A stretch of 64,000 nucleotides of DNA from an uncultured Arcanobacterium sp. (lineage in GTDB: Bacteria > Actinomycetota > Actinomycetes > Actinomycetales > Actinomycetaceae), in contig CAMCHI010000004.1 in NCBI GenBank assembly GCA_945874735.1, positions 508-64,507 of the forward strand, given 5' to 3'. A program made the position numbers and the translations under genes. Positions 55,736-59,782 of the stretch are shown piece after piece (the first letter of the stretch is position 1; each line of letters opens with the position of its first letter). The notes under the pieces are model-generated. The model worked only from the letters and a program-made list of their open reading frames with translations, had not been told where the DNA came from and ran no database searches.

Positions 55736-56731
55736 GTGGATATTTCAATGAATGAACTCCGCGTAGTTGAATCGGAGTTAGGCATAAACTTAAGTGTTTT
55801 AATTGAAACCATTGAAGATGCTCTTTTGCATGCATACAATCGAGTGCCAGGAGCTATTAAAGGGGCACGAGTAGAGCTAGATCGTAGCAGTGGAAAAGTA
55901 GCAGTGTATGCGCCAGAGTTAGATGAAAATAATCAGGTGGTTGGGGAGTTTGACGATACTCCAAATGATTTTGGCAGAATTGCTACTGCTACGGCTCGAT
56001 CAATTATTGCACAGCGGTTACGTGATGCAGAAAGTGCCCGTATTTTGGGTAGTTTTCAAGGTAAACAAGGGCAAATCGTATCAGGCGTAGTAGAAGGTAA
56101 TGCGGGTAAATCGACAGAGTCGCGTGACCTTTTCGTGGAACTAGGAGAAAATCGAGGCGTTTTACGTGCCGAGGAACAGGTTGCTACTGAACATTATCGT
56201 CATGGAGATTTGATTCGTGCTCTGATCTTAGATATTTCGGTAGGTTCGCGTGGTGCTTCAATCCGTTTAAGCCGTTCACACCCGGATTTTGTGCGCCAAC
56301 TTTTTGAGACGGAAGTGCCTGAAATTGCGCAAGGCATAGTGGAGATTGTGGCTTTGGCTCGTGAAGCAGGGCATCGCAGCAAGATAGCGGTATGGTCTGC
56401 TGATGAAAATGTGGCTGCTAAAGGTGCTACCATTGGGCATAATGCACAGCGTGTACGTGCCGTCACCCAGGAATTACATGGGGAAAAAATTGACGTGGTA
56501 GAGTACGATGATGATCCGGCAAAGTTTATTGCTGCCGCGCTTTCACCAGCAAAAGTGGAGCGTGTGGATATTATCAATCGCGATTTACGTCAAGCATTGG
56601 CAATTGTGCCAGATGATCAAGCCTCTTTGGCTATCGGTAAAGAAGCTCAGAATGTGCGTCTAGCAGCTAAACTCACAGGTTGGTCGATTGATATTAGAAA
56701 ATCTTCAGAAGATCCAGCTAAATTAGCTTAA
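55736..56731 (+). CDS. nusA: Transcription factor NusA
   Basis: FGRIATATAR, S1 domain, LSRSHP, REAGHRSKIAV, AIGKEAQNVRLAAKLTGW. Confidence 0.97.
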   Translation: MDISMNELRVVESELGINLSVLIETIEDALLHAYNRVPGAIKGARVELDRSSGKVAVYAPELDENNQVVGEFDDTPNDFGRIATATARSIIAQRLRDAESARILGSFQGKQGQIVSGVVEGNAGKSTESRDLFVELGENRGVLRAEEQVATEHYRHGDLIRALILDISVGSRGASIRLSRSHPDFVRQLFETEVPEIAQGIVEIVALAREAGHRSKIAVWSADENVAAKGATIGHNAQRVRAVTQELHGEKIDVVEYDDDPAKFIAAALSPAKVERVDIINRDLRQALAIVPDDQASLAIGKEAQNVRLAAKLTGWSIDIRKSSEDPAKLA

Positions 56732-56736
56732 ACGTT

Positions 56737-56784
56737 AAACACAGGTGGTGAGATGAGTTAAGTAAATTTCACCACCTGTGTTTT
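56737..56784 (+). terminator. Intrinsic terminator after nusA
   Basis: AAACACAGGTGGTGAGA...TTTCACCACCTGTGTTT plus T. Confidence 0.8.
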
Positions 56785-56904
56785 CCCTAGTGAGCCTATT
56801 CACCACGTTTTTTAGGGTTAAGGCTCTAAATTACGGGGAAAATCAGGTAGACTTAACGTGCATTTGTCCAAACGCTAAATATTAAGAAAGCGGGTAGAAA
56901 GCCG

Positions 56905-56973
56905 ATGGGCACCCGATGAGTACCCAGCGATGAGCTGCCAGTAACACAGGTCTGACGCCACTGCGCGCGGACC
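56905..56973 (+). promoter_or_regulatory. infB leader: three ATGA-chained mini-ORFs followed by a GC hairpin
   Basis: MGTR* at 56905-56919, MSTQR* at 56916-56933, MSCQ* at 56930-56944; hairpin GGTCTG...CGGACC at 56949-56973; AGGAG SD at 56981-56985. The pattern is directly visible; its function is inferred. Confidence 0.6.
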
Positions 56974-56989
56974 GCATAGAAGGAGAATT

Positions 56990-59782
56990 GTGGCCAAGGT
57001 CCGCGTACATGAACTTGCCAAGGAATTAGGTATTCCTAGTAAACAATTACTAGAAGTATTAAAAGAAAATGGTGAATTCGTAAAGTCAGCTTCGTCTTCC
57101 ATCGAAGCTCCAGTGGTGCGTCGTGCACGAGAATATTTTGATAAGCACCCAGAATTATTGCCAAAGTCAGCTAGTGAAGCTAGCGATAAAGTTTCTGAAA
57201 AGAAAGCTCAAAACACTGCAGAAGTAGTGGCAACTGCGCAGGTAGAAAGCGCTGGCGAAAAGAAGCCAGTCAAGCCAAAAGCGCCAAAGCCAAGCACTGT
57301 AAAAGCTAATACTGAAGAAGTTGAAAAGCCAACTGTGGAGCAGGCAAACCAGAAGGAAGCAAAGAAACCAGCTACCCCTAATGTGAATGATGCTCCACGC
57401 TTTAGTGAAGCTGGTAAAGAGCCTGCTCCTCCTCGCCCTATGGCGCGAAAAGGTATGCCTCGTCCTGGTAATTCACCTTTTGCTTCATGGCAAGGTATGG
57501 GAAAGCCAAAGCCAGGAGCACAAAACAACGCAGGAGGCAAAGCTCCTCGTCCAGGCAATTCACCTTTCGCTTCGCAACAAGGCATGAATCGTCGCCCAGA
57601 AGGAGCCTCAGCTGGTGGTAATGCCGGACGGCGCGGTGGTGCTGGCAATGGTGGACGTAATAATAATGCTAATAATGCAGAGCGGAATAACCGTCCAAGT
57701 CCTAATATAATGCCAGAGCAGATGCTGCCTGGAGATACGCGCGCAGGGCGCGGCGGTCGGGGCGGTCGCGGCGGCAACGATAATGCAGGCGCTAATAATA
57801 ACTTCCGTGGAGGCGGTTTTACTCGTTCCGGCGGTAAAGCACGTGGCGGTTCTACTGCTGGTGCTTTCGGTCGGCGTACGGGCGGTAAGAAGAAGAACAA
57901 TAACCGCTCTAAGCGTAATGAGTTTGAAGAGTTGCAATCTCCAATGCTGGCAGGCGTGCAAGTACCACGCGGTGACGGCTCTACTTTAGTGCGGGTACGT
58001 CAAGGCGCATCGCTTTCTGACTTTGCTGAAAAGATTGGAGCAGATCCAGCAGCTTTGGTAACGGTTCTTTTCCGAATGGGAGAAATGGCTACTGCCAATC
58101 AATCCTTGGATGAGGATACGTTCCAGTTATTAGGTGCTGAACTGGGTTATGATATTAAAATCATGAGCGCAGAGGACGAAGATCGGGAGATTTTAGAGTC
58201 CTTTGCTATCAACCTAGAAGCAGAGCGCGCGGCAGAAGATGAGGCCAATCTGGTTGCTCGTCCACCAGTAGTTACCGTAATGGGTCACGTGGATCATGGA
58301 AAGACTAAACTTCTTGACGCTATCCGTAATGCTGATGTGGTAGAGGGAGAAGCTGGCGGTATCACCCAGAATATCGGTGCATATCAGGCACACGTAGATA
58401 TTGAAGGGGACGAACGGTTTATCACCTTTATTGACACCCCTGGTCACGAAGCCTTTACCCAGATGCGTGCGCGTGGTGCTGATGTTACTGACGTAGCAAT
58501 TTTGGTGGTTGCTGCTAATGATGGTGTGATGCCACAGACGGTGGAAGCTATCAACCACGTGCAGGCGGCTAACGTGCCAATTGTGGTAGCAGTAAACAAG
58601 ATTGACGTAGAGGGAGCTAACCCGCAAAAGGTGCGCGCACAGCTTACCGAATACGGATTGGTTGCTGAAGAATACGGCGGTGACGTGGCTTTTGTGGATA
58701 TTTCAGCAAAACAGCGTATTAATATCAATGAGCTGCTAGAAACCATCGTAACCACCTCGGATATTTTGGTAACTCCTACTGCTAATCCAAATAAGGCAGC
58801 ACGTGGAGTGGCAATTGAAGCTAAGCTCGATCAGGGACGCGGTTCAGTAATTACTGCACTAATTCAAGACGGTACACTCCGCGTTGGCGATCCGATTGTG
58901 GTCGGCACGGCGTATGGTCGCGTGCGTGCTATGAGTGACGAGCATGGAAACCGTGTGGAAGAAGCAGGGCCATCGCGTCCAGTACAGGTACTAGGTTTAA
59001 CTTCTGTACCTGGAGCTGGTGATCAGCTAATCGTGGCAGAAGATGATCGCACTGCACGGCAAATTGCTGAGCGGCGAGAAGCTGCTAAGCGAGCTGCTAC
59101 TTTGGCTAAGCGTCGCAAGCGTGTATCCCTAGAGGATCTCACTGCAGCTATTGAAGAAGGCAAGGTAGAAAACCTCAACCTCATCATCAAGGGTGATTCT
59201 TCTGGTTCAGTGGAAGCACTAGAATCTGCATTGCTTGAAATCGAGGTAGGCGGCGAAGAAGTACAGCTCAACGTAATTCATCGTGGCGTGGGTGCAATTA
59301 CCCAGTCGGACGTAGACTTGGCTACTGTAGACTCCGCCGTTATTATCGGTTACAACGTACGTCCTGCTGAGCGCGTAGCTGAACTAGCTGATCGTGAAGG
59401 CGTGGAGATGAAGTACTACTCGGTAATCTATGATGCGATTAACGATGTAGAAGATGCGTTAAAGGGCAAGTTGAAGCCGATTTACGAGGAAGTAGAACTA
59501 GGTACTGCCGAAATTCGTCAAGTATTCCGTTCCGGTAAGTTTGGCAATATCGCTGGTTCTATTGTGCGTTCTGGATCGATTAAACGTGGCACTAAAGCAC
59601 GATTAATTCGAGATGGAGCAGTAATTGCTGCCAACTTGGAAATCGAGTCCTTGCGTCGCGAAAAAGATGACGTGACGGAAGTGAAAGACGGTTACGAGTG
59701 TGGTATCACCCTAGGTTACAAAGATATTGCGGAAGGCGACATCATTGAAACTTGGGAACTGCGAGAGAAACCACGGGACTAA
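56990..59782 (+). CDS. infB: Translation initiation factor IF-2
   Basis: [14 protein letters not shown]; [20 protein letters not shown]; GTG start. Confidence 0.98.

Follow-up and report, generated by a model that had tools for sequence, protein, structure and literature searches.

A class-wide chain of coupled mini-ORFs and a candidate two-state RNA switch ahead of infB in Actinomycetes

The mini-ORF chain and its conservation

In the window, by which we mean the whole 64,000-nucleotide (nt) stretch of Arcanobacterium DNA analysed here, infB, the gene for translation initiation factor IF2, occupies positions 56990–59782 of the forward strand as a 930-residue open reading frame (ORF) with a GTG start. 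Its N-terminus was matched by tblastn, which found the infB N-terminus in 140 loci. The source genome (Actinomycetaceae) is 1.51 Mb long, has a GC content of 44% and is 99.8% complete. Three very short upstream ORFs (uORFs) can be read directly from the leader of this gene, all on the forward strand: uORF1, ATG GGC ACC CGA TGA (MGTR; 56905–56919), uORF2, ATG AGT ACC CAG CGA TGA (MSTQR; 56916–56933), and uORF3, ATG AGC TGC CAG TAA (MSCQ; 56930–56944). The stops of uORF1 and uORF2 overlap the starts of uORF2 and uORF3, respectively, in an ATGA at 56916 and another at 56930, which are overlaps of the type at which termination-reinitiation (TeRe) occurs. The starts lie in repeat units, CGATGGG at 56903 and CGATGAG at 56914 and 56928. 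A purine-rich block resembling a Shine-Dalgarno (SD) sequence, GAAAGCGGGTAGAAAG (56886–56901, forward strand), precedes uORF1 and would serve it; this block includes the AGAAAG run at 56896–56901, and its CGGG is invariant in 29 sequences from the same order. Downstream of the chain, four bases (CACA) separate the TAA of uORF3 from a hairpin at 56949–56973, which is followed by the infB SD, AGGAG (56981–56985, forward strand), part of an AGGAGA that is invariant in the order-level alignment. The coordinates that a first-pass annotation, made from the letters alone, had assigned to the three mini-ORFs and the hairpin were borne out base by base. That the chain visits all three frames, as it also remarked, is true but is the trivial outcome of three -1 steps, and the distance from the chain to infB has no frame preference among the 113 unique chains collected, the set to which the chain counts below refer.

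Within this genome the arrangement is not unusual. Four triple all-ATG chains occur on the two strands of the 1.51 Mb, versus 11 in one first-order Markov simulation, and the idea that the chain exceeds chance within the genome was dropped; the infB chain is the only one of the four to stand before a major gene. The significance of the pattern rests on conservation. A near-identical block was present in 29 of the 29 infB upstream regions read, which came from 41 same-order genomes searched. When a covariance model built from these 29 regions (R1) was run with the strict filters of Infernal, it matched 204 of 301 genomes sampled across the class Actinomycetes, with one match per genome in nearly all, and 13 of the 14 class genomes that R1 missed and whose infB upstream region was read keep the chain in a diverged form. 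In all, at least three coupled mini-ORFs precede infB in 131 of 132 upstream regions from the class, the sole exception being L136, and in most class sequences the chain ends 33–52 nt before the infB start. Named carriers are Actinomyces, Trueperella, Schaalia, Gleimia, Arthrobacter, Cellulomonas, Terrabacter, Nocardiopsis, Jiangella and Sporichthyaceae, and Mycobacterium-like and Streptomyces-like genomes are also among the carriers.

The chain was absent from seven infB upstream regions of other classes, and a class-wide model run against 401 genomes of the phylum returned nothing convincing outside Actinomycetes. Weak matches outside the class (L121, L122, L124 and L125) and one within it (L126) are unrelated to infB. 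A further locus outside the class, L123, is degenerate and has only two separated mini-ORFs, and the matches in an Acidimicrobiales metagenome-assembled genome (MAG; L197) and an Acidobacteriota MAG (L200) are chance matches and not infB leaders. Among these rejected loci, L125 (genome G413, from another class) carries at about positions 165–200 a short ATGA chain (CCCGATGAGCGGCCGATGAGCGCCCGATGAGCGACCCG...) at a gene junction, where ribosomes seem to be passed through a pair of mini-ORFs into a long ORF. Relays of this kind may be used more generally in actinobacteria.

The invariant positions of the chain are those that form the start/stop overlaps. Entropy is zero at the overlap bases T2, G3, T13, G14, A15 and A26–A29 of 89 canonical chains, while neighbouring bases vary. 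In the 113 unique chains, the start codon of uORF1 is ATG 105 times and GTG 8 times, its stop is TGA 112 times, and its length is four residues in 95; uORF2 has five residues in 105 and stops with TGA in all 113; and uORF3 ranges from three to nine residues and stops with TAG (47), TAA (45) or TGA (21). Length variants of uORF1 (3–11 residues) and uORF2 (2–6 residues) differ by whole codons. No fewer than nine independent events are needed to account for the length changes, and the 3n+2 frame relation is preserved, with no premature stop, in every spacing variant. At the first junction 109 overlaps are of four nt and 4 of one nt, and at the second all 113 are of four nt; where ATGA has been lost, GTGA, TGATG or TAATG stands instead and the coupling is always kept. 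Two loci, L137 (genome G063) and L183 (a Sporichthyaceae MAG), have four-link relays that arose by tandem duplication of a unit (ATGACCACACG three times, and ATGAGCAC..CAGCG repeats), so the number of links can grow by unit duplication.

Only the first mini-ORF and infB itself have SD-like sequences. The mean anti-SD duplex energy is -5.6 kcal/mol at uORF1 and -8.2 kcal/mol at infB, versus -2.3 and -2.0 kcal/mol at uORF2 and uORF3, both of which fall below the background of -3.35 kcal/mol. uORF2 and uORF3 lack an SD, as do downstream frames at TeRe junctions, and are therefore predicted to depend on coupling. In one group of the class sample, a canonical AAGGAG lies 7 nt before a GTG-initiated uORF1. 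In L105 and its kin, an ORF ahead of uORF1 ends in GTGA, which overlaps the GTG start of uORF1, and ribosomes of this lineage may pass into the relay straight from the preceding gene, possibly ylxR, as well as by way of the strong AAGGAG. As a separate observation on the SD-less starts, AUGAG is complementary to positions 32–36 (CUCAU) of the anticodon loop (CUCAUAA) of the initiator tRNA in this genome, a complementarity that may optimise such starts; the elongator tRNA-Met genes, however, have the identical CUCAUAA loop.

At the peptide level, uORF1 encodes MSAR, MGTR or MSTR, uORF2 encodes MSTQR in 45 of the 113 chains through seven synonymous DNA versions, and uORF3 is free apart from its initial Met-Ser. 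CGA is the final sense codon of uORF1 in 97 chains and of uORF2 in 87. We recognised no ribosome-stalling motif in the leader. RNAalifold, applied to the order-level alignment, predicted only one 5-bp helix in the mini-ORF region, CGGGU:ACCCG around the first ATG, and this helix has no compensatory change; a structured-RNA reading of the region was rejected on this ground. The Ribo-RET supplement text searched (Smith et al. 2022) has no entry for infB, Rv2839c or MSTQR. The statement of the first-pass annotation that similar ATGA runs precede infB in other actinobacteria was verified by the 131 of 132 class regions, and the conserved start/stop overlaps that it had proposed to test for across Actinomycetota exist within the class Actinomycetes. 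The freedom of the peptides to vary, which it had also proposed to test, holds for uORF3, whereas uORF1 and uORF2 are constrained in part.

Competing pairings around the infB start

The hairpin that follows uORF3 in the window pairs arm A (GGTCTG-A-CGC; 56949–56958, forward strand) with arm B (GCGCGGACC; 56965–56973, forward strand) as GGTCTG-A-CGC / GCG-CGGACC, with a predicted energy of -13.9 kcal/mol and a z-score of -2.6. Across 125 distinct spacers, the segment from uORF3 to the SD folds better than its shuffles (mean z of -2.8), and z lies below -2 in 80%. In an alignment of 111 sequences (A3), the uORF3 stop lies 0–7 nt ahead of arm A in 110, and in some Arcanobacterium relatives it lies inside the arm. 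With this spacing, and given the known extent of the mRNA channel and the size of the ribosome footprint, a ribosome that has the stop codon in its A site would have to keep most of arm A unpaired, and a terminating ribosome would cover the arm.

Folds that include the first 33–40 nt of infB revealed a second partner for arm B. Its consensus, (G/C)C(G/C)CGGACC, is complementary to arm C, GGTCCG(C/G)G(T), which begins at position +9 of infB in 103 of the 111 sequences and in the window corresponds to codons 4–6 (GGTCCGCGT; 56998–57006, forward strand). The resulting B:C stem-loop of the window (56960–57012) has a predicted energy of -20.0 kcal/mol and a z-score of -2.7, and 0 of 200 shuffles folded as well; this fold has the SD in its loop and pairs part of the GTG. 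The rare Val codon GTC, with a share of 4% among the Val codons of this genome, is used in arm C. The two pairings share arm B and are mutually exclusive, and one of them is predicted in silico to occlude the start site, as in an attenuator.

Both helices covary in A3. For A:B, 83% of cells are paired and the covariation score is 0.257 versus 0.168 in shuffles, and controls in which the helix was slid score far lower; for B:C, 85% of cells are paired and the score is 0.180 versus 0.132. In neither case did any of 500 shuffle controls reach the true score. At pair 41–89 of the B:C helix, C:G occurs 51 times, G:C 19 times and U:G 14 times. The G:C state, which is found in at least five families, is a synonymous CGG/CGC change in infB that is matched in arm B. 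Duplexes between true partners were also stronger than those between partners swapped among species, at -18.9 versus -15.6 kcal/mol for A:B and -20.3 versus -17.8 kcal/mol for B:C, and 0 of 5000 permutations matched the true value in either case. The two conformers are closely balanced: their median energy difference is 0.0 kcal/mol, 60 of 100 sequences lie within 3 kcal/mol, and each conformer wins in about half.

In family f6 and in other lineages whose IF2 has a different N-terminus, B:C is lost; there, the hairpin has in its loop and 3' arm a complement of the SD itself (CCUGUCUGGG with CCCAGACAGG, CCUGUC with GACAGG). In these lineages the logic appears to have been kept and the target changed. 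Separately, codons 8–14 of infB in most high-GC relatives (for example L029, L050 and L080) read GAGCTCGCCAAGGAGCTCG, encoding ELAKEL, and this sequence forms a predicted 7-bp hairpin just 3' of arm C in nearly every fold, either as a by-product of repeated Glu-Leu codons or as a structural part.

Neighbouring genes and promoter candidates

The gene upstream of the leader is nusA (55736–56731, forward strand), a 331-residue ORF for which all 41 of the 41 relatives have an orthologue of NusA length (E values as low as 1e-210). It is followed on the same strand by a long hairpin with a 14-bp perfect stem and then TTTT (56737–56783; AACACAGGTGGTGA...TCACCACCTGTGTT TTCC). The hairpin and T-run are likely the nusA terminator, which would part nusA from the infB leader; a simple terminator scan did not include 56737–56783 in its list. 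Matches of this hairpin to the animal miRNA precursors mir-71 and mir-725 fall below the Rfam gathering scores and are spurious.

A -10-like hexamer, TAGACT (56848–56853, forward strand), is kept in the Arcanobacterium relatives that lack ylxR: L002–L004, L006 and L009–L016 have caggTAGACT, cagcTAGACT or ggcTACACT at the same relative position. The hexamer is a possible promoter of the infB leader's own, and the 5' end of the leader is predicted to lie near 56860. About 45 nt upstream of it, at 56790–56803, lies a palindrome-like motif, GTGAGCCTATTCAC (consensus GTGAGCGCTTTCAC), whose consensus resembles LacI-type operators. The pair of palindrome and hexamer recurs in the same relatives, with two copies in L012, and may form a regulated promoter of the infB-rbfA-truB unit.

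In most genomes the relay is located between ylxR and infB. No ylxR (PF04296, RnpM) was found between nusA and infB in the window (56732–56989), nor anywhere in this nearly complete genome. As some congeners (L005, L007 and L008) keep ylxR upstream of the relay, the gene was lost within Arcanobacterium while the relay stayed, and the persistence of the relay here indicates that it is independent of YlxR.

Proposed control of infB, its rivals and related systems

We propose, with a probability of roughly 0.55, that the leader is a translated termination-reinitiation relay joined to a two-state switch, which together exert negative feedback of initiation capacity on IF2 synthesis. In outline, a ribosome would bind the moderate SD-like block and start uORF1, from which uORF2 and uORF3 would be reachable only by termination and reinitiation through the AUGA overlaps. 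Each restart needs a fresh formylmethionyl-tRNA (fMet-tRNA) delivered by IF2. Ribosomes that pass both restarts would terminate at the uORF3 stop and, to judge from footprint geometry, hold arm A single-stranded, which would free arm B to pair with arm C (+9 to +17 of infB), to which its complementarity is just as great. The B:C stem would enclose the SD and GTG in a 20–27-nt loop and bury codons 4–6, and this stem, or the SD pairing of the other families, should block 30S accommodation on infB. High relay flux, reflecting ample initiation and reinitiation capacity, would lower IF2 synthesis; at low flux A:B would persist and the start site of infB would remain accessible. The homeostatic response would be steep, as the effects of two or three initiations in series multiply. 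The least certain part of the proposal is that IF2 is the sensed limiting factor, and not fMet-tRNA, RRF, RF2 or ribosomes generally.

Several observations weigh against this proposal. Sequence by itself does not fix the polarity of control, and translation of the mini-ORFs is likewise deduced from the letters. Masking arm A in equilibrium folding did not significantly alter the predicted accessibility of the ribosome-binding site (0.51 versus 0.52, p = 0.18), a result that speaks against a switch driven by thermodynamics alone. The cause is that about half of the sequences already have B:C as their minimum-energy fold, and the model therefore requires A:B to form first, kinetically and co-transcriptionally. 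Arm C lies in a conserved peptide (KVRV) whose codons are preferred anyway in high-GC genomes, and the shuffle controls ignore phylogeny, which inflates the covariation statistics. B:C is absent from several lineages, such as f6, which have the SD-sequestering pairing instead. Finally, CGATGAG or CGATGGG also surrounds the first ATG, at which a stop would serve no purpose, a sign that the repeated motif may be under some additional constraint that the model does not explain.

The first-pass annotation had supposed that a ribosome at the last stop melts the 5' arm of the hairpin and in this way tunes infB-rbfA-truB expression. The geometry (110 of 111 sequences) and the covariation of the hairpin that it had thought worth checking both support the first half of this idea, and the most likely effect on infB is a closing of the start site and not simply its opening. 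Its overall interpretation is supported in part, by the conserved chain, the SD-less uORF2 and uORF3, the hairpin geometry and the covariation.

A more ambitious version of the proposal makes the leader a bacterial counterpart of GCN4, an ancient, class-wide sensor of IF2·GTP·fMet-tRNA with a roughly cubic response, possibly responsive to guanosine tetraphosphate (ppGpp), whose A:B/B:C switch represses infB. If true, it would close a gap by giving the third bacterial initiation factor an autoregulation of its own. We regard this version as doubtful.

Somewhat less likely again is a relay of opposite sign. Here B:C would be the default closed state, and ribosomes leaving uORF3 would scan as 30S or 70S particles, unwind the stem and restart about 45 nt downstream, so that IF2 synthesis would rise with relay flux. 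The frequency with which B:C is the predicted minimum-energy fold, in the window as in about half of the sequences, fits this idea; the strong infB SD could capture scanning ribosomes, and the GTGA overlap in the L105 group indicates that the chain may start from an upstream gene. However, a gap of 33–52 nt containing a strong hairpin is long for reinitiation, a strong SD should need no relay, the conserved competitor arm A would be left without a role, and positive feedback would not give homeostasis of an initiation factor.

The signal could also be something other than free IF2. An identical relay and switch might sense RF2, recycling by RRF and EF-G, fMet-tRNA, ppGpp-bound IF2 or ribosome-targeting antibiotics; a device that senses antibiotics would be a stress sensor like the whiB7 leader. 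The near-universal UGA at the uORF1 and uORF2 stops (112 and 113 of the 113 chains), the frequent CGA as last sense codon and the moderate conservation of MSTQR through synonymous changes could each be taken this way. A WhiB7 chromatin immunoprecipitation (ChIP) peak has been reported upstream of infB in M. abscessus (PMC10727445), where the infB leader may have its own stress-responsive promoter. The UGA is forced by the AUGA overlap, however, and is no independent evidence for RF2; the uORF3 peptide varies freely, a stalling motif was not identified, and the presence of one copy per genome, specifically before infB, points to IF2. On balance we judge a different signal improbable.

We consider it quite improbable that the mini-ORFs are an anti-polarity bridge that keeps ribosomes on a gap of about 100 nt and so blocks Rho, with the hairpin as an unrelated stabiliser or processing site. 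The position of the element between ylxR and infB in most genomes would suit such a bridge, and Rho-dependent termination reportedly affects overlapping ORFs less readily in M. tuberculosis (D'Halluin et al. preprint, 10.1101/2022.06.01.494293). In the window, however, ylxR is missing and the leader seems to be transcribed from a promoter of its own, and a bridge leaves unexplained the 0–7 nt spacing of the hairpin, the competition among arms A, B and C and the use of three tiny frames where one would do. Least probable of all is an untranslated element whose three CGAUGAG repeats bind a protein (for example IF2, NusA, RbfA or S1) or form a structured RNA with incidental frames, since the motif around the first ATG, the small CGGGU:ACCCG helix and the z-score of -2.1 of the uORF region in the window are outweighed by the 3n+2 relation and lack of premature stops in all spacing variants, by GTGA, TGATG and TAATG junctions that destroy the motif and keep the coupling, by the lack of compensatory change in the helix, by the restriction of the SD among the uORFs to uORF1 and by the absence of an Rfam match.

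A prior description of the element was sought in Rfam and in the literature, and none was found. An Rfam 15 scan of 56600–57150 gave no family at 56880–57010, its only matches being sub-threshold miRNA models on the post-nusA hairpin, and full-text searching of the literature returned no description of an infB relay. The proposed relay and switch would combine elements of several known systems. Termination-reinitiation coupling reportedly takes place at NUGA and URRUG overlaps. TeRe overlaps have been surveyed for M. tuberculosis without mention of infB (D'Halluin et al. preprint, 10.1101/2022.06.01.494293). The infB chain resembles such junctions in its four-nt (AUGA, GUGA) or one-nt (UGAUG, UAAUG) overlaps and its SD-less downstream frames. 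It differs in having at least three links, with frames of three to nine codons of which none is protein-coding, in ending at the foot of a candidate switch hairpin and not in a gene, and in being fixed before one gene throughout a class.

The ermC, cat and cmlA leaders act by translational attenuation; the whiB7 uORF acts transcriptionally. Like the erm and cat leaders, the infB leader has a short ORF beside alternative pairings, one of which occludes the start, and the position of a ribosome would pick the fold. In erm-type leaders, however, a drug-stalled ribosome opens the SD, whereas the ribosome predicted to close the infB start is one that terminates in the ordinary way; the signal would be ribosomes passing two reinitiations and not stalling, and there is no known inducer. 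With GCN4 and ATF4 the proposed device would share serial tiny uORFs and an output set by reacquisition of initiator tRNA, which reads initiation-factor availability. The likeness is an analogy only, as GCN4 and ATF4 depend on eukaryotic scanning and have spaced, non-overlapping uORFs and no RNA switch.

Among bacterial translation factors, IF3 discriminates against the AUU start of its own gene, infC, and prfB contains an internal UGA at which an RF2-dependent +1 frameshift occurs. As in those cases, the activity of the factor would here be measured on its own mRNA and fed back negatively; the difference is that the readout would be serial reinitiation and a structural switch. The literature searched gave no published mechanism for autoregulation of IF2 at the level of translation. 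For the E. coli metY-nusA-infB operon, a reference title in PMC6511841 speaks of NusA-mediated feedback regulation. Each component, the TeRe chain and the leader-actuated switch, is of a known kind, and their combination appears not to have been described in the literature searched.

IF2 is essential, and IF3 and RF2 have textbook autoregulation. The sequence device described here stands before infB throughout nearly all of a major class, and current genome annotation ignores it. Under the proposed hypothesis, reinitiation in series would provide gain and the RNA switch would be actuated by a ribosome that terminates, and the relay would offer a natural model for what decides whether a ribosome restarts after termination.

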